A program made the translations under genes and the position numbers. Of a stretch of 64,000 nucleotides of DNA, positions 37,575 to 60,680 are shown one piece after another (the first letter of the stretch is position 1; the number at the start of each line of letters is the position of its first letter). The notes under the pieces were generated by a model. It ran no database searches. It saw only the letters and a list, made by a program, of their open reading frames with translations, and was not told where the DNA came from. Origin of the DNA: Chloroflexota bacterium (GTDB lineage Bacteria; Chloroflexota; Limnocylindria; Limnocylindrales; CSP1-4). Location: assembly GCA_034435355.1 (NCBI GenBank), contig DAOTXE010000019.1, positions 9,026 to 73,025 on the forward strand. Reading direction: 5' to 3'.

Positions 37575-37584
37575 GGAGCGCGGG

Positions 37585-38250
37585 GTGGCGATCTCGAACG
37601 GCGCACGGGTCCGGATCAAGAAGCTCGGGGAGCCGTTCGCCCTCGCCCTCGGGAGACTGGGGCTGACGCCGGACGGCCTCACCCTCGCCGGGTTCGGCAT
37701 CACGGCGGTCGGGGCGATCCTCCTCGCCGGCCAGCTCTGGCTGGCCGGCGGCGTCGTCGTCCTTGCCGGTGGCGTCTTCGACATGTTCGATGGCACGCTC
37801 GCCCGGGCGACGGGTCGCGTCAGCCGCCTGGGCGCCTTCATGGACAGCGTGTTCGACCGCTGGGGCGAGGCGCTCGTCTACCTCGGCGTCATCGTCGGCT
37901 GCTCGCGTGCCGGCTTCGGGGACGGTCCGTGGCTGGCCGGGGCGGCGATGGCGTCCGCGTTCCTCGTCAGCTACGTCCGCGCGAAGTCGGAGGGCCTGGG
38001 CTTCACGGCCGGGACGGGGATGGCCGCGGTCGGGCTCATGCCGCGCGAAGTCCGCCTCGTCGTGCTCACCCTCGGCCTGGTGCTCGCCGGCGCCGCCGGC
38101 GGCGTCGCGTCCGCGCTCGACGCTGCGGGCTCGATCTTCCTTGCCGCCGCGCTCGCGATCATCGCGGTCGGCGCCACGATCACGGTCATCCAGCGCGTCC
38201 TGCACGTGCGCGGGCAGGCCGCGGCGGAGGCGCGCGAACGCCCGAGCTGA
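37585..38250 (+). CDS. pgsA: CDP-alcohol phosphatidyltransferase (phosphatidylinositol-phosphate synthase-like)
   Basis: [31 protein letters not shown] (D-G-x2-A-R...G-x3-D-x3-D). GAGGAG RBS lies 6 nt before GTG 37585. Confidence 0.85.
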
Positions 38251-38311
38251 CCACCGAATCATCCTCGATCCACCCATCACCCCATTTCCACCGGAGGCAG
38301 AAGGCAGCCCA

Positions 38312-39574
38312 ATGGCAAAGAAGGACCCGAAGCATGGGAGCACGAACGGCGTGAGCAGCAACGACAACGGCGACGGGGCGAATCCGACCGGCTCCTGGGC
38401 CGGAGCGAAGCGCAGGGACGGCAAGATCCGCGTGGCGATCGTCGGCGTGGGGAACTGCGCCAGCAGCCTCGTCCAGGGGCGCTACTACTACGAGAACGCG
38501 AAGGAGACCGAGGCCGTTCCGGGCCTCATGCACGTCAACCTCGGCGGTTATCACATCCGCGACATCGAGTTCGTGGCGGCCTTCGACATCGACAAGACGA
38601 AGGTCGGGAAGGACCTCTCCGAGGCGATCTACGCCGGCCAGAACAACACCTACGTGTTCCAGCAGGTCCCGCACATCGGCGTGACCGTGGACCGCGGGAT
38701 GACCCACGACGGCCTCGGCAAGTACCTCAGCCAGGTCATCGAGAAGGCGCCCGGCCCGACCGCCGACGTGGTCGGCATCCTGCGCGACCGCGAGGTCGAC
38801 GTGGTGGTCTCCTACCTTCCCGTGGGCAGCGAGGAGGCCACGAAGTGGTACGTCGAGCAGGCCCTCAAGGCCGGCGTCGGCTTCGTGAACGCCATCCCCG
38901 TCTTCATCGGCCGCGAGCCCTACTGGCAGCGCCGGTTCGCCGAGGAAGGCCTTCCGATCATCGGCGACGACATCAAGAGCCAGGTCGGCGCGACGATCAC
39001 GCACCGCGTCATGACGCGTCTCTTCATGGACCGCGGCGTTCGCCTCGACCGGACCTACCAGCTGAACTTCGGCGGCAACACCGACTTCCTGAACATGCTG
39101 GAGCGCGAGCGGCTGGAGTCCAAGAAGATCAGCAAGACGAATGCGGTCACCTCGATGCTCGACTACGAGATGGCCGAGTCCGACATCCACGTCGGCCCGT
39201 CGGACTACGTGCCCTGGCTGAAGGATCGGAAGTACTGCTACATCGTCATGGAGGGCACGACCTACGGCGACGTGCCGCTGAAGGCCGAGCTCAAGCTCGA
39301 GGTCTGGGACAGCCCGAACTCCGCCGGTGTGATCACCGACGCGATCCGCTGCCTGAAGCTCGGCCTGGACCGTGGGCTCAAGGGCACCCTCGTGGCGCCG
39401 TCCAGCTACTTCATGAAGAGCCCGCCGCAGCAGATCCACGACGACATCGCGTTCAACCGCGTCGAAGCGTTCATCCGCGGCGATGACAACGAGACGCTGG
39501 TCGGGACCGAGAAGCCGGTGGCCCGGAATCTCCGGACGGTCGCCAGGGCCGCCGCCAGGGCTGCCGCGAAGTGA
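38312..39574 (+). CDS. ino1: myo-inositol-1-phosphate synthase
   Basis: [18 protein letters not shown]...[14 protein letters not shown]...[11 protein letters not shown]. This looks like the actinobacterial/archaeal type of Ino1. Confidence 0.95.
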
Positions 39575-40674
39575 CATTGGTCCCCGGTGCTCCCGGCGCC
39601 ACCGACCGGGTGCCGGGACCCGAGGCCCGGGCCGGGTCCCGCGCCACCCCCGGAGCCCTCCGGGCTCCCCATCGCAGGGAGGCCGAGGGGCGGCGCATCC
39701 GGGCACGGATCGCCGTGCTCGCGTACCGCGCGGGAGCGTGGGTCCTCGCCCGCCTCCCGCTCGGGCCGGCGACGCGCGTCGGCGGGTGGATCGCGGTGGG
39801 CCTGTACTGGGCGTGGCCAGCCCGGCGACGGTACGTCCGCGCCAACGCGGCCCACGTCCTCGGCATCCCGCGGGGCGATCCCCGGGTCGGGCGGCTTGCC
39901 CGGGCGGTCTACCGGAACCAGGTCCGCTGGGTCCTCGAGCTGATGCGCCTGTCGCGGATGTCACAGGCACAGCGGATCGCCCAGATCTCCGAGACCGGCG
40001 CCGAGCCGTTCCACCGGACGTGGCTCGAGTCGAAGGGCCTGATCGTCGTGGGCGCGCACCTCGGCAACAACGAGGCAGCCGCGGCCGGCCTCGCCGGGCG
40101 CGGCTGGCCGATGCACGCCGTCGCCGACGACACTGCCTACGAGGAGCTGTTCGAACACCTCGACCGTGAGCGACGCAGCTGGGGCGTCGGGCAGATCCCG
40201 TGGCGGAATCTCCGGGAGGTCTTCCGGGTCCTCCACCGGCACGAGATCGTCGCGCTGCTGGTTGACTGGGGCTACCGGCCGGACGGCATCCCGGTCCGCT
40301 TCTTCGGCGCCTGGACCCGGTTCCCGGCCGGGCCCGCCGTCCTGGCGGCCAGGACGGGCGCGGCAATCCTCCCGTTCTGGGTGATCCGCACCGATGGCCG
40401 CCATCTCACGAACGTGGGGTCGACGATCACGGCGGCGTCGGACGAGCCGGCCGAGATCGTCCGAGCGACGCAGGAGATCGCCACCGCGATCGAGGCCGGC
40501 ATCCGGCTGGCGCCCGAGCAGTGGTGCGTGTTCAAGCCCATGTGGCCGGACGATCCCGCCGAGATCGCCCGGCTCGAGTCGCTCGGCGGGATGGCGCCCG
40601 GGGCCGTTTCGGCACCCGGCGCGCCCACCGGTTCCGGTTCGGCGCCGGCGGGCGAGCCGGTGGCGGAAGCATGA
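39571..40674 (+). CDS. lysophospholipid/lipid A-type acyltransferase (LPLAT, HtrB/PatA-like) 1
   Basis: [13 protein letters not shown]...[20 protein letters not shown]...HAVAD matches the LPLAT fold. GTGA overlap with ino1. Confidence 0.75.
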
Positions 40675-41660
40675 GCGGCCCACGGGCAGCCGGCGCCCCG
40701 CGTCGCCCCACGGCGATCCAGCGGCTGCGCGTCGGTCTCCTCGACGTCGTCAGCTGGCTTGCGACACGCCTGCCCGCAGCCGTGGCCGGAGGGCTCGCGG
40801 ACGCGGTCGGCGAGCTCTGGTACCGGGCGACGCCGGCGCGGGCCGCCCAGGCGCGGGCGAACCTCGGGCGCGTCGTCGCGCACCTCGCCGCAACGGGGAT
40901 GGCGGGAGCCCGGGCGCAGGCCGCCGCGGACGATCCCGCTGCGCTGGAGCGCCTGGTCCGGGCCGCCTACCGGCATGCAGCCAGGACGTACGCGGAGCTG
41001 ATCCGGGGGGCAGCCGTGGTCCGCGAGGCACCGGCTCGAACCCGCATCGAGACGCCCGCCGCGGTCGACGCCGCCTTCGGCGTCCGGCCCGCGATCTTTG
41101 CCTCCCTCCACTTCGGGTCGCTCCAGGCGACCGAGGCCATCCTGCTCACCCGCCTCGACACGCCGATCACCGCGCCCATGGAGACGCTCGACGACCCGGC
41201 GCTGCAGGCGTTCGTGGCACGGGCCCGCTCCGCCTCGGGCGTTCGCCTCGTCACGCTCGACGCGGCACGGCGCGAGCTCCGCGCGGCGCTCGGCCGGGGC
41301 GAGCTCGTCGGCGTCATCGGCGACCGCGACATCATCGGGGGCGGTGTCTCCGTCCCGTTCTTCGGATCGCCCGCGCCGCTGCCCGTCGGGGCCGCCCTCC
41401 TCGCCCTCGAGTCGGGAGCCCCGATCCACGTCGCGGCCGTTCGCCGTCTCCGCGGGGAGCGCTATGCCGGCCGGCTCGAGACGATCGCGCCGCCGAGCGG
41501 CGCCCTCGCCGCCGGGCCGGGCGCCCGTCGCGCCAGAGTCGAGGCCCTTCTTGCCGACGAGGTCGCCGTGTTCGAGCGTTTCATCGCCGACGCCCCCGAA
41601 CAGTGGTGGGCCGTCTTCTTCCCGATCTGGCCGGATCTCGGCCTGGCGGCCCGGCCGTGA
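40671..41660 (+). CDS. lysophospholipid/lipid A-type acyltransferase (LPLAT) 2
   Basis: This is a paralogue of the upstream gene: FASLHFGSLQATEAI...GELVGVIGDRDIIGGGVSVPFFGSPAPLPVGAALLALESGAPIHVAAV. ATGA overlap. Confidence 0.8.
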   Translation: MSGPRAAGAPRRPTAIQRLRVGLLDVVSWLATRLPAAVAGGLADAVGELWYRATPARAAQARANLGRVVAHLAATGMAGARAQAAADDPAALERLVRAAYRHAARTYAELIRGAAVVREAPARTRIETPAAVDAAFGVRPAIFASLHFGSLQATEAILLTRLDTPITAPMETLDDPALQAFVARARSASGVRLVTLDAARRELRAALGRGELVGVIGDRDIIGGGVSVPFFGSPAPLPVGAALLALESGAPIHVAAVRRLRGERYAGRLETIAPPSGALAAGPGARRARVEALLADEVAVFERFIADAPEQWWAVFFPIWPDLGLAARP

Positions 41661-42529
41661 GCGACGGCGGAACGACGCTGCGATCGGTCGGCGGACCCGA
41701 CCCGTCGGAGCCGCACGGCCGCGCCGACCTGCACGTCCACAGCCTCGCCTCGGACGGGCTCGACGACATCGAGACGATCCTCGCCCACGTGCTGGCGACG
41801 GAGGACCTCGACGTCCTCGGCATCGCGGACCACGAGCGGATCGACGGTGCGATCGCGGCCCGCGCGATGGCCCGGGCGCGGGGCCTCCGCCTGGAGATCG
41901 TCGTCGGCGAGGAGATCACGACGCTCGAGGGACATCTCCTGGCCCTCTTCCTCGAGGAGCGGGTGAGGCCCTTCCGCTCGATGCGGACGACGATCGGCGA
42001 GGTCCACGAGCAGGGCGGCCTCGCGATCCCGGCCCACCCACTGTTCCCCTACCCGCTCTGCGCGCAGGGCTGGACGCTCCGGCGACTCGTGACCGCCGGC
42101 GATGCGCGCGTCCGGCCCGACGCGCTGGAGGCATTCAACCCCACGACATTCGGTCGGCTCGTGCACGACCGGGTCGGCGCGTTCGCCACGGCGCACGGCC
42201 TGGCGACGGTCGGCAACAGCGACGCCCACGAGGCAGCCGCGATCGGCACCGGGTTCACCACGTTCCCCGGACGAACCGCCGACGACGTGCGGGCGGCGAT
42301 CATCGCCGGGACGACCGGCTGGGAGGGATCCTTCCACCGGACCACCTCGCAGCTTCCGACCTTCGGGAGGCAGCTCCGCAAGTACAGCCGCGACATGCGC
42401 GCGGAGGTTGGCGGCCGCGTGCGGCGCGATGGCACCGGCCGCGACCTGGGCTACCCGGGCGGCCGCTTCCGGCCGCCCCGCCCCGAGCACGCCGGGAGCG
42501 GCGCGCCCCCTCACGAGGACGCGCCGTGA
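41657..42529 (+). CDS. PHP-domain metal-dependent phosphoesterase
   Basis: ADLHVHSLASDGLDDIETILAHV...LDVLGIADHERIDG...VGNSDAHE are PHP His/Asp motifs. GTGA overlaps on both sides. Confidence 0.8.
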   Translation: MSDGGTTLRSVGGPDPSEPHGRADLHVHSLASDGLDDIETILAHVLATEDLDVLGIADHERIDGAIAARAMARARGLRLEIVVGEEITTLEGHLLALFLEERVRPFRSMRTTIGEVHEQGGLAIPAHPLFPYPLCAQGWTLRRLVTAGDARVRPDALEAFNPTTFGRLVHDRVGAFATAHGLATVGNSDAHEAAAIGTGFTTFPGRTADDVRAAIIAGTTGWEGSFHRTTSQLPTFGRQLRKYSRDMRAEVGGRVRRDGTGRDLGYPGGRFRPPRPEHAGSGAPPHEDAP

Positions 42530-43707
42530 AGATCGGGCTCGTGACCCCGTACGTGTACCCGCTCCCAGGGGGCGTCAACGACCATGTCGGGCACCTGTAC
42601 GAGGCGCTGCGTGGCCGCGGCCACGACGTCCGGATCCTGACGGCCAGCCACGGCCTCCAGCGCAGCTCCGAGGGCGACGTCATCCGGATCGGGAAAGGCT
42701 TCTCCGTGCCGTCGAACGGGTCCATGGGGACGATCACGGTCTCGCCCCGCTATCGCAGCCAGATCCAGGCAGTCCTCGACGGCGAGCAGTTCGACCTCCT
42801 TCATTTTCACGAGCCCTTCGTGCCCCTCCTCGCCGTGTTCACGCTGCGCGAGTCCCGAAGCGTCAACATCGCCACGTTCCACGCCTACTCCGGGTACGCG
42901 CCCGGCTACCAGCTGGGCGGCAGGCTGCTGCGACCCGTTGCCCGGCATATCCACGGCCGGATCGCGGTCAGCGCGGCCGCCCGGCACTTCGCGGACCGCT
43001 ACCTGCCCGGCGACTACAAGGTGATCCCCAACGGCGTGGACCTCGCCCGGTTCGCGCACGCGGTCCCGATCGCGCGCTGGCAGGACGGCCGCCCGAACAT
43101 CCTCTTCGTCGGCCGGTTCGAGGCCCGCAAGGGGCTGCTTCCGCTCCTGAAGGCCTACCGGATCCTGCGCAAGAGCGGCCGCGACTGCCGGCTCCTGGTG
43201 GTCGGCTCCGGGCCGCAGGAGCGGGAGGCACGCCGCTACGTGATGACCCGGCGCCTGCCCGACGTGGAGTTCCTGGGCCGCGTGTCGGACAGCGACAAAG
43301 TCCAGCTCTTCAGGACGGCCGATGTCTACGTGTCGCCGGCGACCGGCCGCGAGTCGTTCGGGATTGTTCTCCTCGAGGCGATGGCCGCCGGGACGGCGAT
43401 CGTCTGCAGCGACATCCACGGCTACAAGGGTGTCGTCAAGCGGGGCGAGCAGGCGCTCCTCGTGCCGCCCGGCGAGTCACGCCCGCTCGCCGAGGCGATC
43501 CTCCGGCTCGTCGACGACCCGGACCTGCGTGCGCGGATGGAGGCGAGTGGCCTCGAGCGCGTCGCCGAGTTCGGCTGGGACCGGATCGCGGCCCGGGTGG
43601 AGGCCTATTACGGGTTCGTGATCCGGCGCCTCGCGGCGCAGGGCGCCCTGCCGGACGGGTTCCGCGCCGACGTTCCGCCGGACCCGCGGGCCGGCGTCGT
43701 CGGCTGA
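42526..43707 (+). CDS. GT4 family glycosyltransferase (PimA/MshA-like mannosyltransferase)
   Basis: KIGLVTPYVYPLPGGVNDHV...FVGRFEARKGL...ESFGIVLLEAMAAGTAIVCSD, a GT-B fold with the EX7E motif. Confidence 0.85.
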   Translation: MKIGLVTPYVYPLPGGVNDHVGHLYEALRGRGHDVRILTASHGLQRSSEGDVIRIGKGFSVPSNGSMGTITVSPRYRSQIQAVLDGEQFDLLHFHEPFVPLLAVFTLRESRSVNIATFHAYSGYAPGYQLGGRLLRPVARHIHGRIAVSAAARHFADRYLPGDYKVIPNGVDLARFAHAVPIARWQDGRPNILFVGRFEARKGLLPLLKAYRILRKSGRDCRLLVVGSGPQEREARRYVMTRRLPDVEFLGRVSDSDKVQLFRTADVYVSPATGRESFGIVLLEAMAAGTAIVCSDIHGYKGVVKRGEQALLVPPGESRPLAEAILRLVDDPDLRARMEASGLERVAEFGWDRIAARVEAYYGFVIRRLAAQGALPDGFRADVPPDPRAGVVG

Positions 43708-43716: not shown

Positions 43717-46700
43717 TCAGGTTCGTGGCGGCTCGGGCGCTGCGGGCGCCTCGGGCGCTTCCGGCCACTCGGGCGCTGCGGGCGCTGCGGGCGGCTCCGA
43801 CAGCAGGGCAGGCGCGGCCTCGTCGGCCAGTCGCTCGGCGATCGCGATGCGCCACACCCAGGCGCTGTACCCCACGATCAGGACCGAGACGAGCACCGCG
43901 GCGAGCAGGAGCAGCGGCCACGGGCTGGCGAACGACACGGTGAACGGCGCGTCCGTGTTCACGGCGAACTGGAACGGGTAGAGCCACGTCGGCAGGAGGC
44001 CCTGATACCAGTTGAAGACGCCGTTCGGGAGCGGCAGCCCTGACCAGTTCGGGTAGAACGCAACGAACGCCACGGCCGAGGCGAGCACGACGCCGACGGC
44101 GAACCGGCGCGGCGAGCGGGCCGTCCACACGAGCCAGGCGAGCGGCCCGAGGACCAGCAGGAGGAGCAGCGAGAGAAGCTCGCCCGGGATGCTCGGGGTC
44201 TGGACCAGCGGGGTCACCGGGAGCAGGACGGCCGCCGCAACGAGGCAGGCGAGGGCAATGAGCCCGGTCGCGACGATTCGGCGTGAGCCCGCTGCAGCCG
44301 CGGCCCGGTCCGCGCCCGCCCGGACCAGCCGGTCGAGCCGGACCAGCTGCCAGACCAGGAGCCCCGCGCCGGCCGCGAGGACGACGATGAGGCCGACGAC
44401 CTGGGCCGTCAGCGAGAAGGGCAGGGACGCGGCGGCGGTGCACGCTTGGGAACCGGGGTCGACCCGCTCGACGCCGGCGAGCCCGCACAGCGGGCTCTTG
44501 CCGAACCAGAGGACAACCGGGACGAGGAGCGCCGCTGCGGCGGCGCCCCGGGCCAGCAGCCATGTCCGGGCCGACGGACCGTGCCAGAGCTCCGCCACGA
44601 AATAGGCCAGGCCGAGGATCACGAATGGGACCGTGGCGTAGTAGTGGTATTCGAACGTGGCCCGATCGATCCGCGCCCAGGAGAGCCAGGTGAAGGCAAT
44701 CACGACCGAGATGAGCCCCAGCCCGAGGCTCCTGCGCCGGTAGGCCTGCCAGGCGACGAAGGCGATGGCCGGGATGGCGAGCCACCAGATGACCGGGTTG
44801 CCGCCGTCGTAGATGGCGCCCGACATCGACCCGCCGAAGGACTGCTGGAAGAACCAGACCGGCTTGAGGTCGAGCGGCCAGGCCCACCAGGGCGACGCGG
44901 CCGGGTGGGTCGCCCGGAGGTTGTTGTGGTAGTCGTACATCGCCTTGGTGAGGTCGAGCAGCGTCTGGCCCGTGTTGCCCGGCGGCCAGGAGGACGTCAG
45001 GCGGTTGCCCAGGGCCACCCAGGGCAGGTACAGGGCGACGTAGACCGCGGCCGGGATCGCCCCCAGCGAGATTCCCGCCCAGGCCACGGGCAGGCCCCGG
45101 CGCCAGCCCGGGCGGAGCCAGCCATCCGGAGGGGGCGCAGGCGGGCCGAGCAATGCCGCGGGATCGTCGGGTGCGATCGGCGGCGCGAGCGGGCCGAAGC
45201 CGAGCCGTCCCGCGAGCCAGAAGGCCCCGGCGGCCAGCGCGGAGATGCCGAAGCAGCCGAGCGCGAGCGCGAGCGCCGCAGGCCCGAGAGCGAGCGGGAT
45301 CGCCACCAGCGCCACCAGAGCCCCGGCCGCGGCGGGCCCGGCGACCGCGATCCAGACTTCCTCGACCGACCACGCGATCGGGTGGAGCACCGTCACCGCG
45401 GCGGCCGCGAGGGTCAGCCCGATCATGATGGCGAGGAAGGCAAGGTTGCCTCCGGACGTCGCGCCGGCCGGGACCGAGACGGCCATGTACCCGAGCACGG
45501 CCGTCGCGCCGGCGAGGCCGAGGACGACCACGACCCGTCCGAGCGCCGACCGGACCAGGAGCAGGAGCGCGACGGCAGCGAGCGCATAGAGTCCGACCCA
45601 CTTGGACCCCATGGCGAGCCCGAGCAGAAGTCCCACGACCGGCATCCCGACCCAGAACGCCCCGCGCCAGCGCCACGCCCCCGTCCAGATCGCCGCGAAC
45701 AGCGTGACGGCGGCAACGATGAAGAACGCGACGTACGTGTCGTTCATGCCGATGCGCTGCTGGACGAAGAACATCCCGTCCAGCAGGCCGAAGATGCCGG
45801 CAAGCACGGCCACCGAGCGCCGACGGAACAGGATCCGCGCAAGCAGGAAGAGGAGCCCGGCCATCAGCGCGCCGAGGATCACGCCCGGGAGTCGCCAGGC
45901 GAACGCGTGCTGGCCGATGTCGACGGAGGCCGCCTGGCCGGTCGCCCCGAACACCAGGATCTGCTCGCGGTCCGTGGCCGGCACGTCCGGGTTGACGTCG
46001 GTGGCCCAGGCGGCGGGCGCGAACGGCAGGCGGGCGTCCGCGAAGACGCTGTTGCCGCGCGGCTCCACGACGTAGACGGTCCAGCCCGTGCCGTCCATCG
46101 TCCGGCCGAGCGCGTGGATCATCTGGCTCGCCGCGTCATAGGTGACGCGGCTGATGGCGGCGGGCATCCAGACGCTCTGCGAGAGGGTCGGCGCGCTCCC
46201 GTCCGCCGGGGTCCCGATCACGGCCAGCGACGACCCGGTCGCCGCGTACAGGAAGGGCGAGTCGAGGCCCGGGGCCGCGACCACGCTCGTGGCGCCCCCG
46301 GCCAGCGGAACCTGCCCGGTCACCGCGCCGCTCGTCGGCTCCATGAACGTCACGCCGGCGGCATCGGACACCGCGACCTGGGAGAGGCTCGTGTCGCTCA
46401 GCCCGGCGAGCGCCCCGCTCGCGATGGCGGCGTCGATCTGCGTCCTCTGGGCGGAGATGGCAGTCGAGATGACCACCTGCGACGCCTTCGAGCGGAGCTG
46501 CTGCTCGTAGGTTGCCGTCGTGCCGCCCAGGATCCTGGAGAGCTGGGCGGCGACGAACGTCGGGTCGGTCACGCTCGCCGGGTCCGCCACGAGCGCGGCG
46601 ACGGTGCCGGCATCGGCAACCTCCGAGCGGCCCGCCAGGATGACCGAGGCGAGCCGTGCCCCCGTTGCCGCGTCGAGCGAGACGAGCGTGTCGCCGGGGG

Positions 46701-48909
46701 TCGCCGCGAGCACCGTCGCGCCATCGTCCGTGACCCACAGCCGCGTCACCGGGCCCCCCGCGGACCCGAGCGGGACGAGGGCGGGCCGCAGCGCCCCGCC
46801 GGTCGCTGCGGCCCGCACGGCGGCGGCGCCGACGGACGTGTCGAGGGCGAGGATGTCACCCGAGGCCGTGCCGACGAAGAGCCGATGCCCCGTGGCGTCG
46901 ACCGCGACCGCCTGCGCGCCGGGCAGCGCGAGGGTGACGAGGAGCTCGCGCGTCTGCAGGTCGTAGACGCGGATGCCGGCACCCGTCGCGACGTACAGCC
47001 GGTTGCCCTCGGCCTGGCCCCCGCCGGCCGCTGCCGGGTCGGACCAGCCCTCCTCGATGGCGACGTCCGTCACCGGCACGCCGAGCGCGCTCGTGGCGGT
47101 GACCGTGTCGTCCCCGACCGCGACCAGCCCGCCTGCCATGACGTACTTGGCCAGGTGCGGGTGGGTCCACTCGTAGATCGCGTGCGGTTCGCCGTAGCGC
47201 CAGTCCTGCAGGAACTCGGTGGCCGTGCGCGCGTGATAGACCTCGTCGAAGTGCATCCGCAGGGGCTCGCCCAGCCGGAAGGTCCGCAGGAAGAGCGACG
47301 CGACGACGATCACGACGATGAACCAGAGGTCGAGCCGGTCGAGCGTGCCGCCGCCCTCGCGATCGAGAAGGTGCGAGCGATCGAAGGCTGCCCGCCCGGC
47401 GAGGGCGCGCGCGCCGCCGGCCGCCCGGCCCAGCGCCGCTCCGAGGCCGAGCCCACCCACCGGGGGAGCGTCACCGGGCCCGCCCTCTGCGGGCGCATCG
47501 GCCAGCGCTCCCCGCGGAGCGGGCGCCTCCCCGGCCGGCGGCGCGTCGTCGTCGGCCGCGATCAGCGCGGCGGTGGCGTCGACCTCCTCGGGGGCCGGGT
47601 GAACCAGGAACGCCAGCCCCGTGAGCAGGCCCCCTGCGTGGACGGCGGCCGCGGCGGTGACCCCGCCCCATGAGCGCGCCGCGTCGCCGAGCTGGGATCC
47701 CAGGCCGCCGAATGCGTCGAGCATCGGTCCGAGCCCGAGGTTCGCGTAGAACGGCTCGGTCAGGATGCCGTAGAGGTTGGCCGTATTCGCAGCCGCCAGC
47801 GCGAGATAGACCCCGATCCAGCGCGGGCTCACCGCCACGAGCACGGCCCCGAGCGCGAAGAACGGGAAGAGGTAGCGCTCGTGGACGCGGGTCGGCAGGA
47901 CGAAGAAGGCGATCGCAAGCACCGCCAGGGCCGCGAGGAAGGTCCGCCGGTCGTCGCGCCGCCAGATGACGGCGGCCAGGAACCCGATCATGCCGAGCAG
48001 CAGGGCAGTACCGACCACGATCGCCGGGATCCCGAAGACCAGGAAGCCCGGCCCGCCGTCGGCGCCGGCCTGCGTGGCGTCGCGGATCCAGGTCCCGTTG
48101 AGGGCAAGCCCCGCCCCGGCCTGGCTGACGAGCGCCCACGGGTTGAACGCGTTGACGGTCAGCCATGGGTAGCCCGCCGCGGTGTCGACGATCTGGTGGA
48201 GCAGGCCCACGATCGTCAGTCCGAAGGGGGCGCACAGGAGCTGGGCGGTGACCAGCCCGACGAGCGTCGTGGTCAGCACGCGGCGGGGTCCGTGGCCGGG
48301 CGGCCGGGTGACCAGGTTTCGGCGCAGGATCAGGACGGCAGCCAGGGGGATGAGGATCCCGAACTGGGGCTTGATGATCGCCGCGACGGTCGTGAGCAGG
48401 GCGGCTCGCTCGTCGCGTCCGCGCCACAGCTCGCGCACGGCGAGAAGGAGCACCAGCGTCCCGACCGAGTCGACCTGGGACCAGATCGCGCTGTCGAACC
48501 AGGTGACCGGGACGAACAGGACCAGGGCGGCGGCGCCGAGCGCGGCCCGCCGGCGCGCACCGAGATCGGCGGCGAGCTGGAAGACGGCGACCGCGAGCCC
48601 CAGGTCGGCCAGGATCGCCGGCAGCTTCAGGAGATCGCCGGGCGCGGCGCCCGGCCCGCCCAGGAGCTGGGCCACCAGGCCGAGACCCCACAGGACGTAG
48701 AGATACCCGGGCGTGTAGTCGATGAAGATCCCGCGGCCGTAGATCCCGAACGGCCCGTTCCGGGCGAGCTCCACGGCCCAGCCGTTGAAGGAGCCGACGT
48801 CCACCTTGAAGCCGGACCCGGGCAGGACGGCGTATGCGATGATGAGCCGAAGGACGAGGCCGAGCGCGAGAAGAACGCCGAGCGGGACGGCAACGTCCCG
48901 AAGCCGCAC
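43717..48909 (-). CDS. giant polytopic membrane glycosyltransferase: N-terminal GT-C domain + PMT (GT39) N-terminal domain + beta-propeller-like insert + PMT C-terminal/PMT_4TMC region
   Basis: The first ~460 codons of the 2191-aa ORF track entry are Arg-rich and overlap a plus-strand gene, so the start is placed at GTG 48909. IKPQFGILIPLAAV is a GT-C motif. RMHFDEVYHARTATEFL...HPHLAKYVM matches PMT. YVATGAGIRVYDL...LFVGTASGDILALD is propeller-like. YDYHNNLRATHPAASPWWAWPLDLKPVWFF...GNPVIWWLAIPAIAF matches PMT_4TMC. Confidence 0.75.
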   Translation of the reverse strand: MRLRDVAVPLGVLLALGLVLRLIIAYAVLPGSGFKVDVGSFNGWAVELARNGPFGIYGRGIFIDYTPGYLYVLWGLGLVAQLLGGPGAAPGDLLKLPAILADLGLAVAVFQLAADLGARRRAALGAAALVLFVPVTWFDSAIWSQVDSVGTLVLLLAVRELWRGRDERAALLTTVAAIIKPQFGILIPLAAVLILRRNLVTRPPGHGPRRVLTTTLVGLVTAQLLCAPFGLTIVGLLHQIVDTAAGYPWLTVNAFNPWALVSQAGAGLALNGTWIRDATQAGADGGPGFLVFGIPAIVVGTALLLGMIGFLAAVIWRRDDRRTFLAALAVLAIAFFVLPTRVHERYLFPFFALGAVLVAVSPRWIGVYLALAAANTANLYGILTEPFYANLGLGPMLDAFGGLGSQLGDAARSWGGVTAAAAVHAGGLLTGLAFLVHPAPEEVDATAALIAADDDAPPAGEAPAPRGALADAPAEGGPGDAPPVGGLGLGAALGRAAGGARALAGRAAFDRSHLLDREGGGTLDRLDLWFIVVIVVASLFLRTFRLGEPLRMHFDEVYHARTATEFLQDWRYGEPHAIYEWTHPHLAKYVMAGGLVAVGDDTVTATSALGVPVTDVAIEEGWSDPAAAGGGQAEGNRLYVATGAGIRVYDLQTRELLVTLALPGAQAVAVDATGHRLFVGTASGDILALDTSVGAAAVRAAATGGALRPALVPLGSAGGPVTRLWVTDDGATVLAATPGDTLVSLDAATGARLASVILAGRSEVADAGTVAALVADPASVTDPTFVAAQLSRILGGTTATYEQQLRSKASQVVISTAISAQRTQIDAAIASGALAGLSDTSLSQVAVSDAAGVTFMEPTSGAVTGQVPLAGGATSVVAAPGLDSPFLYAATGSSLAVIGTPADGSAPTLSQSVWMPAAISRVTYDAASQMIHALGRTMDGTGWTVYVVEPRGNSVFADARLPFAPAAWATDVNPDVPATDREQILVFGATGQAASVDIGQHAFAWRLPGVILGALMAGLLFLLARILFRRRSVAVLAGIFGLLDGMFFVQQRIGMNDTYVAFFIVAAVTLFAAIWTGAWRWRGAFWVGMPVVGLLLGLAMGSKWVGLYALAAVALLLLVRSALGRVVVVLGLAGATAVLGYMAVSVPAGATSGGNLAFLAIMIGLTLAAAAVTVLHPIAWSVEEVWIAVAGPAAAGALVALVAIPLALGPAALALALGCFGISALAAGAFWLAGRLGFGPLAPPIAPDDPAALLGPPAPPPDGWLRPGWRRGLPVAWAGISLGAIPAAVYVALYLPWVALGNRLTSSWPPGNTGQTLLDLTKAMYDYHNNLRATHPAASPWWAWPLDLKPVWFFQQSFGGSMSGAIYDGGNPVIWWLAIPAIAFVAWQAYRRRSLGLGLISVVIAFTWLSWARIDRATFEYHYYATVPFVILGLAYFVAELWHGPSARTWLLARGAAAAALLVPVVLWFGKSPLCGLAGVERVDPGSQACTAAASLPFSLTAQVVGLIVVLAAGAGLLVWQLVRLDRLVRAGADRAAAAAGSRRIVATGLIALACLVAAAVLLPVTPLVQTPSIPGELLSLLLLLVLGPLAWLVWTARSPRRFAVGVVLASAVAFVAFYPNWSGLPLPNGVFNWYQGLLPTWLYPFQFAVNTDAPFTVSFASPWPLLLLAAVLVSVLIVGYSAWVWRIAIAERLADEAAPALLSEPPAAPAAPEWPEAPEAPAAPEPPRT

Positions 48910-48990
48910 CCGGGCCTGCTCGCCCGCCCGCGCCCGCTCGCCCGGTGCGGGGCCAGCCAAGGGGAACGGCCTCCGTGATCGAGCGCTGAG

Positions 48991-50397
48991 GTGAACCGGA
49001 GTATAGCCGAGGGCTCGGACGACCTTGCCCCTCGGCCGGCCCGGGCAGCCGCCTCGCGGCCTCGTTCCCCGCTCGCCGTGGGGCTGGGCCTCATGGTCCT
49101 GTTCCTGGCCCTGTATCTCCTCACCCGGCCCTGGTGGCCGACGGTCTACAACCACTTCGTCTGGCAGGCGGACGCCTTCCTCCACGGCCAGGCCTCCATC
49201 CGCTTCCCGGTCCCGGCGACGGGCACCTCGCCGGGCAACGACTTCTTCAATGACGTCGTCCCCGTTCTCGACGCCGCCGGGAACGAGACGGGCCGCGGGA
49301 TGATCCCGTTCCCGCCCCTGCCGGCCGTGATCCTCCTCCCGTTCGTGGCGATCTGGGGGATGGCCACCGACGAGACGTTCCTGTCCGTCCTGCTCGGTGC
49401 GATGGACGTCGGGCTCGCCTACTGGCTCCTTGGCAGGCTGCCGGTCCGCGCCGGGCTTCGCGCCGCCCTCACGGTCTTCCTGGGGGCCGGGACGGCGCTT
49501 TGGTATGCCTCGTCGCTCGGCACGACGTGGTACATAGCGCACGTGGTCGCGGTCGGGCTCGCGCTCGGCGCGGTCGGGCTCGCGCTCGATGCCGACGGCC
49601 GGACGGCCGCGCTCGACGCGGGCGCGCCTCGCCCCCTCCTCGACTGGCGCCAGGTCGCCGCCGGCCTTCTCCTGGGTCTCGCGGTGACGAGCCGGCTGAC
49701 CGTGGTCTTCGGGGCGGTGTTCCTTCTCTTCGTCGGCGGGGGCGGCTCGTGGACACGACGGACCGTCAGCGCGGGGCTCGGCATGGCGATCCCGGTCGGA
49801 GCGCTGCTCCTGTACAACCTCGCGGTGAGCGGGACGCCGTTCAACTCCATCTACGAGGCGCTCTACCGTTACGAGGTGTGGGCCTACCCCGAGCTCCACT
49901 ACAACGGGGCATGGGCACTGGAGGACCTCCGCTACATCCCCCAGAACCTCGGGATCATGCTGGGCGGCCTTCCGGACGTGCTGCCCGCCTGCGACGCCGG
50001 CGTTCCGCGCGAGATCTGGAGCGCTGCCGGGTGCTCCTGGCTGGTGCCCAACCCGGTCGGGATGAGCCTGCTGCTCACCAGCCCGGCCTGGCTCCTGGCC
50101 GCCGCCGCGCTGCCACTCCTGCGTGACCGGAGGGTCGTGGGGGCCTTCCTCGCGACGCTCGCCATCGCGGTCGCCAACCTGATGCACTTCTCGCAGGGCT
50201 GGGTCCAGTTCGGCTACCGGTTCAGCCTCGACTTCGCGCCGTTCCTGCTGGTCCCGCTCGCCCTCGGCGCAGAGCGGCTCGTGGCCCGCCATGGCGCCCG
50301 CACGCGCCGTGGCGGGCTGCTCGTCGGCGGCCTGATCGCGGCCTCCGTCGTCGTGCAGGCTTGGGGGCTCGTGTGGGCCAGGGTGCTCGGCTGGTGA
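48991..50397 (+). CDS. GT-C fold polytopic membrane glycosyltransferase-like protein
   Basis: Multiple TM helices. This gene is divergent from the giant GT and couples (GTGA overlap) with the downstream gene. Its family could not be assigned. Confidence 0.6.
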   Translation: MNRSIAEGSDDLAPRPARAAASRPRSPLAVGLGLMVLFLALYLLTRPWWPTVYNHFVWQADAFLHGQASIRFPVPATGTSPGNDFFNDVVPVLDAAGNETGRGMIPFPPLPAVILLPFVAIWGMATDETFLSVLLGAMDVGLAYWLLGRLPVRAGLRAALTVFLGAGTALWYASSLGTTWYIAHVVAVGLALGAVGLALDADGRTAALDAGAPRPLLDWRQVAAGLLLGLAVTSRLTVVFGAVFLLFVGGGGSWTRRTVSAGLGMAIPVGALLLYNLAVSGTPFNSIYEALYRYEVWAYPELHYNGAWALEDLRYIPQNLGIMLGGLPDVLPACDAGVPREIWSAAGCSWLVPNPVGMSLLLTSPAWLLAAAALPLLRDRRVVGAFLATLAIAVANLMHFSQGWVQFGYRFSLDFAPFLLVPLALGAERLVARHGARTRRGGLLVGGLIAASVVVQAWGLVWARVLGW

Positions 50398-51980
50398 TCG
50401 CCGGCAAGCGAAGGGGGGAGCTGGATCGCCGGATCGCGCTGGCGAGCGTCGCTGCGCCCGTGCTCGTCGGCGTGGTCGCGTTCGCGCTCGCCCGGTCGAC
50501 GCTGCTTCCCGGCCAGGGCCTCTGGGACACCGGCGAGTTCCAGGTGGTGGCCCCCGTGCTGGGCACGGCGCATCCCACCGGCTACCCGAGCTACGTGCTG
50601 CTGGGCTGGCTGGCGAACCTGCTGCTGGCGCCCATCGGCGAGCCGGCCCTGCGGATGAACCTGCTCTCGGCGATCACGCTCGGGGTGTCGAGTGGGTTGA
50701 CAGTCGTGCTGGTCCGCCAGCTGACGGGCCGGACGCTCGTGGCGGCCGGGGCCGGGATGCTCCTGGCGTTGACGCCGATCCCGTGGCGCGTCGGGTCGTT
50801 CGCCGACCCGCACATGCTCCACCTCGCCCTGGTCGCCGGGCTGCTCGTGCTGCTCGTCGGCTGGGAGAAGCGGGCGCGAGCCGTCCGGTCGGACGCGGAC
50901 CGCTGGCTGGTCGCCGCGGCTGCGCTGTACGGCGTCGCCGTGGGCAACCAGGCGCTCACCTTCCTGCTCGCGCCGGGGATCGCCCTCTTCATCCTCGCCG
51001 TCGACCGGGGCGCATGGCGGCGGGGGGGCCTGGTCGGCCGCTGCGCCGCCGCCCTCTTCGGCACGGCCGCGCTCGTCTACCTGGAGCTTCCGATCCGGGC
51101 GGCGATGGGCGCGCCGCTCGTCTACGGGCACCCGGACACGTGGGCCGGCTTCTGGTACGTGGCCCTCGGGCTGCAGTTCACCGGCGCGCTCGGCGGGCTC
51201 TTCACGGACCTTGCCGGCAAGGCGGGGGCCCTGGTCAGCCTGGCGACGGCGCAGGTCGGGCCGCTCGTCGCGCTCGTCCCGGCGAGCCTCCTGGTGACCG
51301 CCATCCGGCGGCCCCGGTATGCCCTCCTCTCCGCCACCTGGCTGGCAATGACGTGCTGGTTCGCGATCTCCTACACCAACGCCGACATCGACCGCTACTA
51401 CCTCGGCCCGATCCTGATCGCGGTGAGCTGGCTCGCGATCGCCGCCGGCGCGGTCGCCGACGCGGTCGAGGCGCAGCTGTTCGTGAGCCCCGACGACGCG
51501 GGGAGGCACGCCGCCGCGGTGCGGCTGGTCCTGAGCGGCGTCGCCTGCGTCGCTCTCGTCGGTCCGGCGGTCATCGCCGCCCCGGCCACCCGGCTCGCCG
51601 TGGACCAGTCGACCGACACGCAGGCCGCCGACTGGAGCCACTGGGCGCTGCAGGTCGTCGAGCCGCACGCCGTGCTCGTGACGTGGTGGGACTACTCGAC
51701 GCCCCTCTGGTACCGCCAGCTGATCCTGGGCGAGCGTCCCGACGTCAGCGTGATCGACGATCGCACGCGGCTCGACGCGAACCTGGGAAGCGTGGACGAC
51801 GTGATCCGTGCGAACCTTGGCACGCGGCCCGTCTACCTGGTGCGGCGCGACGAGGACCTGCCGGACCTCGAGCAGCGCTGGCAGGTGGAACCGATGCCCG
51901 ATCCCGGGGGCCTGCAGGCGCTCCTGCGTGTCGTGGGCCCGGTCGCAGCGATTCGCCTCCCGGCTACGATAGGGCCATGA
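50394..51980 (+). CDS. DUF2723/TMEM260-like GT-C membrane protein (putative mannosyltransferase)
   Basis: GQGLWDTGEFQVVAPVLGTAHPTGYPSYVLLGWL, a polytopic membrane protein with a soluble C-terminal domain. GTGA overlap upstream, ATGA downstream. Confidence 0.65.
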   Translation: MIAGKRRGELDRRIALASVAAPVLVGVVAFALARSTLLPGQGLWDTGEFQVVAPVLGTAHPTGYPSYVLLGWLANLLLAPIGEPALRMNLLSAITLGVSSGLTVVLVRQLTGRTLVAAGAGMLLALTPIPWRVGSFADPHMLHLALVAGLLVLLVGWEKRARAVRSDADRWLVAAAALYGVAVGNQALTFLLAPGIALFILAVDRGAWRRGGLVGRCAAALFGTAALVYLELPIRAAMGAPLVYGHPDTWAGFWYVALGLQFTGALGGLFTDLAGKAGALVSLATAQVGPLVALVPASLLVTAIRRPRYALLSATWLAMTCWFAISYTNADIDRYYLGPILIAVSWLAIAAGAVADAVEAQLFVSPDDAGRHAAAVRLVLSGVACVALVGPAVIAAPATRLAVDQSTDTQAADWSHWALQVVEPHAVLVTWWDYSTPLWYRQLILGERPDVSVIDDRTRLDANLGSVDDVIRANLGTRPVYLVRRDEDLPDLEQRWQVEPMPDPGGLQALLRVVGPVAAIRLPATIGP

Positions 51981-52762
51981 CCCGGGCTGCAGCCGCGCCT
52001 CCTGCTTCGACGGCTCGCGTCCCCGAGCTCTCCTACTTCTTCCCGGCCCACGACGAGGAGGCCAACCTCGAGGGCCTCGTCGAGGAGGCGCTGGCGGCAC
52101 TGCCCGCGCTCGCCGACCGCTTCGAGATCATCGCAGTCGACGATGGATCGAAGGACCGGACGGCCGAGATCGCCGACCGGCTCGCAGCCGCGAACCCGGG
52201 CGTCGTCCAGGTGGTTCATCACGCGACGAACCTCGGCTACGGCGCAGCGCTGCGCTCCGGCTTCGGCGCCGCCCGGTACGGCCTGGTCGCGTTCACCGAT
52301 GGCGACCGGCAGTTCCACGTGGTGGACCTCGGGCGGCTGACGGCCCGCCTGGCAGGCCCGGATCTCCCCGACGCGGTCGTCGGCTTCCGGATCCGGCGGG
52401 CGGATCCGGCCATCCGGACCCTCTATGCGCGCCTGTACCGGCTCGCCAACCGGATCTTCTTCAGGCTCCGGGTCCGCGACGTGGACTGCGCCTGCAAGCT
52501 CTTCCGGCGCGATGCACTGGCCGGTGTCCTCGTAGAGTCCGGCGGGGCGTTCTTCTCGGCGGAGCTGCTGATCAAGCTCGAGGCGGCGGGCCGGCGGGTC
52601 GTCGAGGTGGGGGTCGACCACTACCCGCGGACCGCGGGCTCACAGACGGGCGCGAAGCTTGCCGTGATCTGGCGTTCGGTCGTGGACTTCTGGAGCCTGC
52701 GCCTCCGGCTCTGGGCGAACCGGAAGGGAGCGCTCGCGCGGGGCTCGGCCATCGTCCGCTGA
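51977..52762 (+). CDS. GT2 glycosyltransferase, polyprenol-phosphate mannose synthase (Ppm1/DPM1)-like
   Basis: LSYFFPAHDEEANLEGLVEE...FEIIAVDDGSKDRTAEIA...LGYGAALRSGF...VAFTDGDRQF. Confidence 0.85.
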   Translation: MTRAAAAPPASTARVPELSYFFPAHDEEANLEGLVEEALAALPALADRFEIIAVDDGSKDRTAEIADRLAAANPGVVQVVHHATNLGYGAALRSGFGAARYGLVAFTDGDRQFHVVDLGRLTARLAGPDLPDAVVGFRIRRADPAIRTLYARLYRLANRIFFRLRVRDVDCACKLFRRDALAGVLVESGGAFFSAELLIKLEAAGRRVVEVGVDHYPRTAGSQTGAKLAVIWRSVVDFWSLRLRLWANRKGALARGSAIVR

Positions 52763-60406: not shown

Positions 60407-60560
60407 AGAAGGAGCCTCTTCCAGCCTTGCTGGAGGAGCGCTCCCGGGCCGGCCCCGGGGCTCACCCGGGTCTGCCCGCAGGCGTCCCGGCGACCGTGGG
60501 CCGGGGCATGGTAGCACCGCCCGGGTCGGCCCCGCAAGGCGATCCGGCACCCAAAGCGCG

Positions 60561-60577
60561 ATACTCCCAGGGAGTAT
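60561..60577. repeat. perfect palindrome ATACTCCCAGGGAGTAT followed by TTTT in dnaA/rpmH divergent control region
   Basis: Read directly from the sequence. It is AT-rich relative to its surroundings. Confidence 0.7.
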
Positions 60578-60650
60578 TTTAACGCGGCCGCACGTGGGCC
60601 GCTCGAGCCGCGGCCGGGCACCTGGCGGCACTATCGAGGCGCAGCTTCGT

Positions 60651-60680
60651 TTGACACTTCCGAGGGCGCGTTCCTATAAT
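60651..60680 (+). promoter_or_regulatory. near-consensus sigma70-type promoter TTGACA-18-TATAAT for rpmH operon
   Basis: TTGACA at 60651-60656 and TATAAT at 60675-60680, about 110 nt upstream of the rpmH ATG. Confidence 0.5.

Follow-up and report, generated by a model that had tools for sequence, protein, structure and literature searches.

The minus strand of the analysed window, a 64,000-nucleotide stretch of DNA from a Chloroflexota bacterium, carries a very long open reading frame that appears to join two membrane-bound glycosyltransferases of the GT-C type. This raises two questions: whether such a gene is real, and what the two modules would do on one polypeptide. To our knowledge, work on bacterial protein O-mannosylation has been confined almost entirely to Actinobacteria, the proposal that Pmt needs a propeller cap and another GT-C protein dates only from 2026, and the Chloroflexota lineage of this gene is not known as a maker of phosphatidylinositol mannosides (PIMs). 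Literature searches on Limnocylindria glycosyltransferases, on O-mannosyltransferases or PIMs of Chloroflexi, and on GT39-GT87 fusions returned nothing relevant beyond the 2026 preprint discussed below. We propose, giving it about an even chance, that its product is a GT-C glycosyltransferase with two heads on a single chain, a PMT head and an ALG6-like head, together with a propeller cap.

The open reading frame given in the initial annotation (43717..50292, minus strand) was present in the window. Its first ~460 codons were judged there to be non-coding, and the base composition of the first ~445-460 codons agreed (GC3 0.63-0.83, GC1 0.9+), matching the antisense signature of a plus-strand gene at 48991-50397 (GC3 0.92). 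From about 48940 to the stop codon, GC3 was 0.83-1.0 in one stop-free frame. GTG 48909, previously taken as the true start, is a less likely start codon than TTG 48960, which lies 9 nt downstream of GGAGG (48974-48970). Homologues keep the position of TTG 48960 and the 20 N-terminal residues, and the product from this codon is identical to the database protein P0001 (1,747 aa). The whole gene so defined spans 43717..48960 on the minus strand (1,747 codons plus stop).

The gene is real and consists of a single unbroken frame. It is not an assembly artefact, because it was found at full length in >500 Chloroflexota (Limnocylindria-type) genome bins, with full-length homologues of 1,700-1,830 aa and identities down to 44-50%. 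The frame was checked for a stop or frameshift splitting it into two or three genes, and neither was found; the fusion was also kept in homologous loci. All modules lay in one frame across 80 loci, save for a few long-read bins. Frame changes in these few related loci could be taken as a sign that separate genes had been joined through assembly or frameshift error. However, their indels were scattered within modules, with none at module borders, while every other locus, from many independent assemblies, retained the single frame, and GC3 was uniformly coding over the module junctions. An artefact was thus rejected on the continuous coding GC3 and the frame retained in related loci, and we consider its probability negligible. 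The architecture had been called unusual, which holds among characterised PMTs; however, it is the standard form throughout a whole bacterial class.

The order of domains was as initially described: an N-terminal GT-C module, an Ala/Pro/Gly linker, the N-terminal part of a PMT, an insert of ~400 aa, and the PMT core with the PMT_4TMC region. The quoted motifs IKPQFGILIPL and HFDEVYHARTATEF were found at residues 196-206 and 570-583, respectively (numbering from TTG 48960), and the tandem of two GT-C glycosyltransferase modules on one polypeptide was supported. It should be noted that the earlier domain list left out a conserved C-terminal extension with ~5 membrane helices (about residues 1511-1703).

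The assignment of the second module as PMT/GT39-like was supported by Pfam matches above curated cut-offs and by the presence of the catalytic motifs. Pfam PMT (PF02366) scored 41.2 bits before and 59.6 bits after removal of the insert from the sequence (cut-off 22.7), and PMT_4TMC (PF16192) scored 43.5-46.2 bits (cut-off 32.4), aligning to Pmt4 residues 546-609. The ArnT-type model PMT_2 matched below its cut-off. PMT part A (residues 536-618; 47107..47355, minus) comprises a conserved juxtamembrane motif, TM1 (543-561) and loop 1, which contains invariant R559 and D572-E573 and the E597xTHPHLAK605 helix. This part aligned column by column with Pmt1 residues 53-100, including R64 and D77-E78, and had the highest column conservation of all modules (0.83). 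PMT part B (residues 1016-1490; 44491..45915, minus) runs from TM2 onward through R1023, a short loop-5 equivalent and PMT_4TMC. R559, D572-E573 and R1023, aligned to Pmt1 R64, D77-E78 and R138, were invariant in 60 homologues. The loop-5 equivalent (about 1318-1390, ~70-90 residues) contains HxxxSPWWAWP, and a search for a MIR domain gave no match. The NCBIfam equivalog of actinobacterial Pmt (NF058602) scored 43.1 bits against a cut-off of 800; the protein is therefore no orthologue of the characterised bacterial Pmt.

The insert (residues 619-1015; 45916..47106, minus) was confidently modelled as a seven-bladed YVTN/YncE-type beta-propeller (AF2, pLDDT 92), in agreement with the fold suggested earlier. 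MIR domains of fungal PMTs are located in loop 5, and the initial annotation had placed the propeller at the MIR site. This was rejected, since splicing out residues 619-1012 joined the Pfam PMT match into one stretch (profile positions 2-198, 59.6 vs 41 bits) and gave an unbroken alignment with Pmt1 residues 53-251. Instead, the propeller splits the extracytoplasmic, catalytic loop 1: it follows the HPxLAK helix and precedes TM2, in a region corresponding to about residues 110-128 of Pmt1. Mycobacterial PMTs had also been described as carrying MIR domains, whereas mycobacterial Pmt has none (bioRxiv 10.64898/2026.07.15.738315). As the insertion point is about 45 residues past the DE motif within the same loop, the propeller is probably close to D572-E573. 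An alpha/beta subdomain (residues 793-851; 46408..46584, minus) projects from the propeller, with helices at fragment positions 189-237 of the AF2 model. It resembles part of the class B PBP-like N-terminal (non-penicillin-binding) domain, although the match of the family profile to 4ovd residues 76-165 was short (E 1.6e-6).

The N-module (residues 1-455; 47596..48960, minus) is an ALG6/ALG8-like GT-C of the GT-C_B class with about 12-14 membrane helices. It shows an ALG6-type fold, and its best structural relatives were ALG6, ALG3, GPI-MT-I and PimE, all of which act on lipid-linked glycans. Pfam Alg6_Alg8 (PF03155) scored 25.2 bits with the isolated N-module and 20.6 bits with the full protein (cut-off 25.0), and matched 7 of 22 family members at E<=0.01. 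A full-family profile searched against PDB sequences gave no match for the N-module; ALG6 was reached only after the profile had been widened with stand-alone homologues. A DUF2029 search had been suggested earlier, but the corresponding Pfam family GT87 (PF09594) gave no match to the N-module even at E<=10. This identity was discarded, with ALG6 closer by both fold and profile.

Invariant residues of the N-module comprised D54 in the first outside loop, DYTPGYLY (81-88), WxQxD (160-164), KPQ (197-199) and PTRVHERY (356-363). None of D54, DYTPGY, WxQxD, KPQ and PTRVHERY varied among 60 fused and 21 stand-alone homologues with identities down to 34%, and all 24 residues invariant among the 21 stand-alone homologues were also kept in the fused N-module. 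In the family profile, D54 aligned with the EL1 Asp of ALG6 'YGDFEAQRHW', and PTRVHERY with ALG6 'QVHEK'. D69 of ALG6 has been named as the catalytic base (PMC12653191), and D54 would be its counterpart, with a presumed chain-to-native numbering offset of 18. Modules of this type also occurred in fusions with different GT-C partners, as in P0244. Members of the family were additionally joined to a C-terminal part with a YfhO-like look, for which Pfam gave no match.

The conservation of these motifs bears on whether the N-module acts as an enzyme. In mycobacteria, the GT-C partner of Pmt is reported to have no catalytic residues and nevertheless to be required (bioRxiv 10.64898/2026.07.15.738315). 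By analogy, only the PMT head would be enzymatic here, with the N-module serving as a structural protomer as proposed for Rv0051 and Pmt2. We regard this as quite unlikely, given the invariance of the motifs in the fused and stand-alone homologues, the alignment of D54 with the ALG6 catalytic base, and the fusion of the same module to other GT-C partners. The N-module is probably catalytic and probably performs a second transfer, because its catalytic residues are kept, unlike those of Rv0051.

The two heads are joined by a linker (residues 456-535; 47356..47595, minus) that is rich in Ala, Pro, Gly and Asp and variable in length and sequence. Its column conservation (0.43) was the lowest of all modules, and its consensus was mostly undetermined. 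PMTs have an N-in topology, which together with the even helix count of the N-module suggests that the linker is cytoplasmic. An invariant Cys pair (C1492/C1507) lies directly after the PMT_4TMC region, within the C-terminal extension (residues 1491-1747; 43717..44490, minus). By hydropathy, this extension has about five more membrane helices. One of its outside loops, FYPNWSGLPLP...YQGLLPTWLYPFQF (1635-1665), is conserved and rich in aromatic residues, and its tail is rich in Pro, Ala and Glu; the extension gave no match to Pfam or any other family. In the variant P0015, one extra membrane helix is followed by a LysM domain, an arrangement consistent with a cytoplasmic C-terminal tail. This variant is represented by one cluster and may result from a read-through in gene calling.

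Upstream of the gene, the divergent neighbours (48991..52762, plus) encode a GT-C protein with a weak LA_3751/3752 match (48991-50397), a TMEM260-like GT-C (50361-51980), and a GT2 polyprenyl-phosphate-sugar synthase-like protein resembling ArnC, GtrB and Dol-P-Man synthase (about 52001-52762). This GT2 probably provides the lipid-linked sugar donor. A syntenic 764-aa ORF (53444-55738, minus), whose tail is rich in Ser, Thr and Pro, belonged to no Pfam or NCBIfam family. The adjoining ArnC/GtrB-like GT2 also fits a wall-polymer glycosyltransferase of the GT2 plus GT-C 'three-component' type (YfhO/CsbB, ArnT/ArnC), with peptidoglycan or a wall-associated or teichoic-like polymer as the acceptor. 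The PBP-like subdomain of the propeller, the LysM domain of P0015 and the YfhO-like partner of some N-module relatives point in the same direction. However, the PBP-like match covers a short stretch, the LysM domain was seen in one cluster that may be a read-through, and Pfam PMT and PMT_4TMC scored above threshold while PMT_2 did not. We consider such an acceptor improbable.

Downstream, the convergent neighbours (37531..43707, plus) form a phosphatidylinositol-mannoside-type cluster encoding PIP synthase, inositol-3-phosphate synthase (Ino1), two PatA-like acyltransferases, a PHP phosphoesterase and a PimA-like GT4. The GT4 matched M. smegmatis PimA over its full length (208 bits, E 2e-60). 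The order of the divergent neighbours was kept in about all 80 related loci and L081, as was synteny with the PIM-type cluster. The locus of a more distant homologue, P0086 (labelled Dormibacteraeota), was considered as a means to separate linkage to the PI cluster from linkage to the GT2; it showed the same synteny with both, and therefore did not discriminate.

This neighbourhood suggests another reading, in which the protein is a lipoglycan synthase: both heads would extend the PI-anchored glycolipid made by the adjacent genes, using a polyprenyl-phosphate-linked sugar on the outer face, and the propeller would bind the growing glycan. Mycobacterial PimE and MptA/B carry out outer-face extension with polyprenyl-phosphate-linked sugars. 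The invariant synteny with the PimA-like GT4, the two acyltransferases, Ino1 and PIP synthase favours this reading, as do the lipid-linked substrates of the structural relatives of the N-module. Against it, every characterised GT39/PMT enzyme known to us uses a protein acceptor, and the PMT hallmarks are fully conserved here. Moreover, the giant gene runs towards the PI cluster as a separate transcription unit. The region also lies about 10 kb from dnaN/dnaA and its gene order is conserved class-wide; therefore, the synteny may reflect inheritance rather than function. Universal PIM-cluster synteny fits a glycolipid acceptor and a protein acceptor equally well, and we hold a synthase dedicated to lipoglycan to be unlikely.

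Under the two-headed reading that we prefer, both catalytic loops would lie outside the cytoplasmic membrane, and the donor of both heads would be a sugar on polyprenyl phosphate, most likely mannose that the adjacent GT2 has attached. Head 2, of GT39/PMT type, would activate the acceptor hydroxyl, most likely of Ser/Thr in exported proteins, through the Asp-Glu pair of loop 1. The propeller may cap the active site of head 2 and select or hold the acceptor. Such a role is ascribed both to the MIR domains of eukaryotic PMTs and to the separate propeller protein of mycobacteria, Rv3212. Head 1, tethered through the presumably flexible cytoplasmic linker, would play the part of second protomer that falls to yeast Pmt2 and mycobacterial Rv0051, with a predicted contact between the two heads. 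It could extend the O-linked sugar or glycosylate a lipid-linked acceptor, such as the neighbouring PIM-type glycolipid. The coupling of two successive transfers, or of substrate recognition, proposed in the initial annotation is thus still viable. A more specific version, in which both heads are active on different acceptors, with the ALG6-like head extending a PIM-type glycolipid and the PMT head mannosylating exported proteins, is tentative and rather doubtful. If it were true, one polypeptide would couple lipoglycan and glycoprotein synthesis through a shared polyprenyl-phosphate-mannose pool, the GT-C pair with a propeller cap would be an ancient and general PMT design, and PIM-based envelopes would be no actinobacterial speciality.

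A class-wide, single-chain trio in an unrelated phylum provides independent evolutionary 'Rosetta-stone' support for the joint working of the three parts. It also offers a self-contained target for structural work, for which reconstitution of a complex is unnecessary, and poses a sharp question, as the partner GT-C here still looks catalytic. The genomic context points to PIM-type glycolipids outside Actinobacteria, which bears on how Chloroflexota build their envelope.

The N-module shows about 15% identity to yeast ALG6/ALG8 (GT57; PDB 6SNH/6SNI) and other GT-C_B enzymes. It differs from the yeast enzymes in its bacterial origin, its shorter length and its fusion to a PMT, and the bacterium is not expected to contain Dol-PP-Man9GlcNAc2, the acceptor of ALG6. 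With fungal Pmt1-Pmt2 and Pmt4 (GT39; PDB 6P25, 9E61), the protein shares Pfam PMT, PMT_4TMC, the invariant equivalents of R64, D77-E78 and R138, the HxxxSPWWxWP loop that precedes the four final helices, an organisation in two modules resembling a dimer and, by prediction here, a soluble domain outside the membrane close to the active site. However, this domain is the loop 1 propeller rather than a loop-5 MIR, the second module is no PMT paralogue, and the Chloroflexota protein has extra core membrane helices and the five-helix C-terminal extension. Fungal PMTs are only remotely similar to it in sequence (E 1e-5 to 1e-6). Actinobacterial Pmt (Rv1002c, Streptomyces Pmt; NF058602) likewise belongs to the bacterial PMT family, has no MIR domains and depends on a polyprenyl-phosphate-mannose synthase, in line with the GT2 adjoining the Chloroflexota gene. 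However, it has about 520-530 aa, compared with 1,747 aa, and lacks the loop-1 insertion, the fused GT-C and the C-terminal extension.

The closest parallel in composition comes from a July 2026 preprint, which reports that Pmt of mycobacteria operates together with another GT-C protein and with a propeller in the periplasm that caps its active site (bioRxiv 10.64898/2026.07.15.738315). Pmt/Rv1002c forms a complex with Rv0051, Rv3212 and Rv1209; it co-purifies with the GT-C partner and the propeller, which AF3 sets over the DE motif. Rv0051 is reported as a GT87 protein without catalytic residues that is yet needed for function, Rv3212 as a separate eight-bladed propeller, and translational GT87-GT39 fusions are noted in Paenibacillus (same preprint). 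A GT39 unit with a DE motif, a second GT-C of the ALG6/PimE structural class and an extracytoplasmic beta-propeller are common to both systems, a likeness of composition and fold class only. The mycobacterial complex consists of separate proteins with an anchored propeller, whereas the Chloroflexota protein is one chain with its propeller inserted in loop 1. Its propeller is YncE-like with seven blades rather than eight, and its partner is ALG6-like, has no GT87 match and keeps the catalytic Asp, unlike Rv0051, which is reported to be inactive. The resemblance may therefore be convergent, as blade count and the class and activity of the partner differ. By analogy, the Chloroflexota protein seems to unite this assembly in a single chain, with a partner that is apparently still catalytic. 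The trio design is known from the mycobacterial Pmt preprint; the three parts in one chain, the propeller in loop 1 and the seemingly catalytic partner set the Chloroflexota protein apart.

The giant gene at 43717-48960 (minus strand) encodes a protein of 1,747 aa in which an enzyme of a known kind takes a new architecture. An Arg-rich N-terminus opens a polytopic GT-C module, the N-module (residues 1-455), followed by an Ala/Pro/Gly/Asp-rich linker (residues 456-535), which is the least conserved part (mean column identity 0.43), and by PMT TM1 and loop 1 with FDEVYHARTATEF and EWTHPHLAK (residues 536-618), the most conserved part (0.83). The insert (residues 619-1015) precedes the PMT core and PMT_4TMC (residues 1016-1490). 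This bears out the domain order of the initial annotation, which ran from an N-terminal GT-C module and Ala/Pro linker through the PMT N-part and a ~400-aa insert to the PMT C-part with PMT_4TMC. The C-terminal extension (residues 1491-1747; 43717-44490, minus strand) comprises about five further membrane helices and a Pro/Ala/Glu tail, and matches no known family. An invariant Cys pair (C1492/C1507) lies near its start, and its aromatic outside loop, FYPNWSGLPLP...YQGLLPTWLYPFQF (residues 1635-1665), is conserved or invariant.

The gene lies within an open ORF of 2,191 codons (43717-50292, minus strand). The first ~450 codons of this ORF have a GC3 of just 0.63-0.83 and a GC1 above 0.9, mirroring the plus-strand gene at 48991-50397 (GC3 0.92), and are therefore non-coding, in line with the earlier view that the first ~460 codons are junk over that gene. 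From ~48940 to the stop at 43717, codon-position GC showed one frame with a GC3 of 0.83-1.0 throughout. Of the two start candidates, TTG 48960 was preferred over the initially chosen GTG 48909, since it has GGAGG 9 nt upstream, its 1,747-aa product is identical to database protein P0001, and the N-terminal 20 residues (xGPAxGExxRAGEQARVRLRD) are kept as protein among homologues, in many of which gene callers placed the start at the same position. Residues are numbered from TTG 48960, and the 17-residue gap between the starts has no effect on other results. A mere 30 bp (48961-48990) lies between this start and the GTG at which the divergent GT-C gene begins, so either both promoters lie inside neighbouring coding sequence or one start is miscalled.

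Among 5.8 billion proteins searched, 1,166 matched the giant protein at E ≤ 1e-10; the best 120 were nearly all 1,700-1,830 aa long, with query coverage of 97-100% and identity of 49-100%. Relatives were encoded by 552 stretches in one-genome-per-species contigs, and the best 80 of these were nearly all labelled as Chloroflexota, Chloroflexia, or Candidatus Limnocylindrales MAGs. The architecture is kept across a class of uncultured bacteria. In module-by-module tblastn, the five separate modules shared one frame at nearly every locus; the exceptions were long-read 'MFD' bins, with frame changes within modules and none between them. The proposed single ORF, as opposed to split genes, thus held; an assembly or frameshift artefact was ruled out on the same grounds, and the probability that the giant ORF is an artefact is vanishingly small.

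In the Pfam search, the intact protein scored 41.2 bits against PMT (cut-off 22.7) and 43.5 bits against PMT_4TMC (cut-off 32.4); PMT_2 stayed below its curated threshold. With residues 619-1012 spliced out, the PMT match ran without interruption across profile positions 2-198 of 245 and reached 59.6 bits, and phmmer aligned the spliced sequence unbroken to yeast Pmt1 residues 53-251. In this alignment, R559 corresponds to Pmt1 R64, D572-E573 to D77-E78, and R1023 to R138; all four residues were invariant among 60 homologues. The segment ahead of the last four helices, LDLTKAMYDYHNNLRATHPAASPWWAWP, aligned to Pmt4 residues 546-609, a region that stands after the MIR domains in fungal enzymes. 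The match to the NCBIfam equivalog of actinobacterial Pmt (43 bits) fell far short of the cut-off of 800. Since Pfam and motif matches were obtained but the equivalog cut-off was not reached, the second module is classed by its sequence as a PMT-family member, supporting the original assignment, but not as an orthologue of characterised bacterial Pmt.

The splice test and Pmt1 alignment place the insert in loop 1, after the HPxLAK helix and ahead of TM2 (~Pmt1 residues 110-128), beginning 45 residues after the DE motif. It had been thought to replace the MIR loop, but the MIR site of fungal PMTs is loop 5, where the giant protein has just ~70-90 residues. The accompanying assumption that mycobacterial PMTs carry MIR domains was also mistaken, since mycobacterial Pmt is without any large periplasmic domain (bioRxiv 10.64898/2026.07.15.738315). 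By analogy, a function like that of MIR domains is plausible for the insert. The insert is a seven-bladed propeller, and one blade bears a three-helix, one-strand subdomain (residues 793-851; 46408-46584, minus strand), for which the family profile gave a match to residues 76-165 of the class B PBP-like protein 4ovd (E 1.6e-6). The homologue P0015 has one extra membrane helix and then a C-terminal LysM domain, which agrees with the cytoplasmic C-terminal tail predicted for the giant protein by the positive-inside pattern. The PBP-like subdomain and this LysM domain are hints of an interaction with peptidoglycan or with its synthases.

The isolated N-module matched Pfam Alg6_Alg8 just at threshold (25.2 bits, threshold 25.0), and GT87/DUF2029, named initially among the families to check, gave no Pfam match even at E ≤ 10. 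The observation in the initial annotation largely stands and its interpretation does so in part, as a tandem of two GT-C modules, the second of them PMT-like, with no replacement of the MIR loop and no DUF2029 match. Searched exhaustively, 1.84 billion cluster representatives yielded 2,097 N-module relatives at E ≤ 1e-10, including many complete stand-alone proteins (430-520 aa), PMT fusions of greater length (2,000-2,400 aa; P0144, P0207, and P0214), and ~1,270-aa fusions (P0244 and P0265) to another C-terminal membrane part, which has no Pfam match and reads as YfhO-like. The N-module family acts as a portable partner of other GT-C enzymes.

Alignment of 21 stand-alone members with the N-module gave 24 invariant residues, including D54, W160/Q162, K197/Q199, and T357/H360-E361-R362-Y363. 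The resulting profile matched ALG6 over nearly its full length (E 2.3e-4), and D54 aligned with the Asp in 'YGDFEAQRHW', as did PTRVHERY with 'QVHEK'. The catalytic base of ALG6 is D69 (PMC12653191), which we infer to be this Asp through an 18-residue offset of the PDB chain relative to native numbering. Since the invariant D54 falls on the catalytic base and PTRVHERY on 'QVHEK', the N-module looks catalytically competent; that it serves merely as a scaffold is unlikely, given the invariance of its catalytic residues. The membrane helices of the N-module are even in number (12-14 in its model; ALG6 has 14), and its Arg/Lys clusters (133-140, 176-185, 213-227, and 333-340) fall on alternating loops. 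Together with the Arg-rich N-terminus, this would make the linker cytoplasmic and give PMT TM1 the in-to-out course of known PMTs, so that D54 and D572-E573 would both face outward. Our best reading, to which we give about an even chance, is a self-contained PMT-type holoenzyme, in which the propeller would gate or select the acceptor at the DE site of the PMT head and the tethered ALG6-like head would carry out a second transfer from a polyprenyl-P-sugar.

The giant gene lies in a core chromosomal region, ~10 kb from dnaN (57378-58541, minus strand), dnaA (58949-60673, minus strand), and yidC (61503-62720, plus strand), and the glycosylation locus is ~10 kb away from the probable replication origin. 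The window also holds Lon and ClpB (2.7-9.3 kb) and complex I genes (19-32 kb). Gene order of the locus was kept in essentially all of the 80 related loci (to 44% identity) and in a further one, L081. On the plus strand, a divergent GT-C gene (weak LA_3751/3752-family match) and a TMEM260-like GT-C gene (70.8 bits) occupy 48991-51980. Also divergent from the 5' end of the giant gene is a GT2 with ArnC, GtrB, and Dol-P-Man synthase as relatives. With the giant gene, the two GT-C genes make four predicted GT-C catalytic modules beside one polyprenyl-P-sugar synthase, and the GT2 is the obvious predicted source of the lipid-linked donor. This GT2, the PBP-like subdomain, and the LysM variant also hint at a wall polymer as acceptor, which we consider very unlikely. 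A conserved syntenic gene (53444-55738, minus strand) encodes a ~760-aa protein that matched no family in Pfam or NCBIfam. A single membrane helix divides its cytoplasmic N-domain from a large outside domain, and its C-terminal tail is rich in Pro, Ser, and Thr. Tails of this kind are O-glycosylated in actinobacteria, and the protein is a possible substrate of the giant enzyme.

A plus-strand run (37531-43707) converges on the 3' end of the giant gene. It encodes a PIP synthase (114-125 bits, phosphatidyl- and archaetidyl-inositol-phosphate synthase models), inositol-3-phosphate synthase (Ino1, 534 bits), two acyltransferases with PIM acyltransferase PatA as best NCBIfam match (131 and 82 bits), a PHP phosphoesterase (41702-42529), and a PimA-like GT4 matching M. 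smegmatis PimA full-length (208 bits; next best 79 bits). The PIM-type gene set is complete in this Chloroflexota genome; no report of PIMs in Chloroflexi was found in the literature searched. The PHP phosphoesterase lies between the PatA-like and PimA-like genes at every related locus, and this position makes it a candidate PIP-to-PI phosphatase, a step still unassigned in mycobacteria, where EphE has been proposed (bioRxiv 10.64898/2026.07.15.738315). The PI cluster is a candidate supplier of a lipid acceptor. Its synteny and the habitual use of lipid acceptors by GT-C_B enzymes lend a minor but appreciable chance to both heads building a PI-anchored lipoglycan; however, the record of GT39 enzymes is strictly protein-directed.

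In a preprint dated 16 July 2026, three proteins are reported to co-purify with mycobacterial Pmt (Rv1002c): Rv0051, which is GT87-type, GT-C-like, and described as lacking catalytic residues; Rv3212, a periplasmic eight-bladed propeller placed by AF3 directly over the DE motif; and Rv1209, a DivIVA-like bridge (bioRxiv 10.64898/2026.07.15.738315). Its authors compare the propeller to MIR domains and the pairing of two GT-C proteins to that of Pmt1 with Pmt2, and describe Paenibacillus GT39 enzymes in translational fusion with a GT87 enzyme (bioRxiv 10.64898/2026.07.15.738315). The giant protein has three kinds of part in common with the mycobacterial complex, joined in a single chain. However, its partner is ALG6-like and, from its residues, apparently active, whereas Rv0051 is GT87-type and said to lack catalytic residues; its propeller has seven blades and interrupts loop 1, whereas Rv3212 has eight and is separate; and the five-helix C-terminal extension is a further difference. 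The relation between the two may be one of common descent or of convergence. The main value of the giant protein is that it independently supports, and also complicates, the multi-part design recently proposed for bacterial PMTs.
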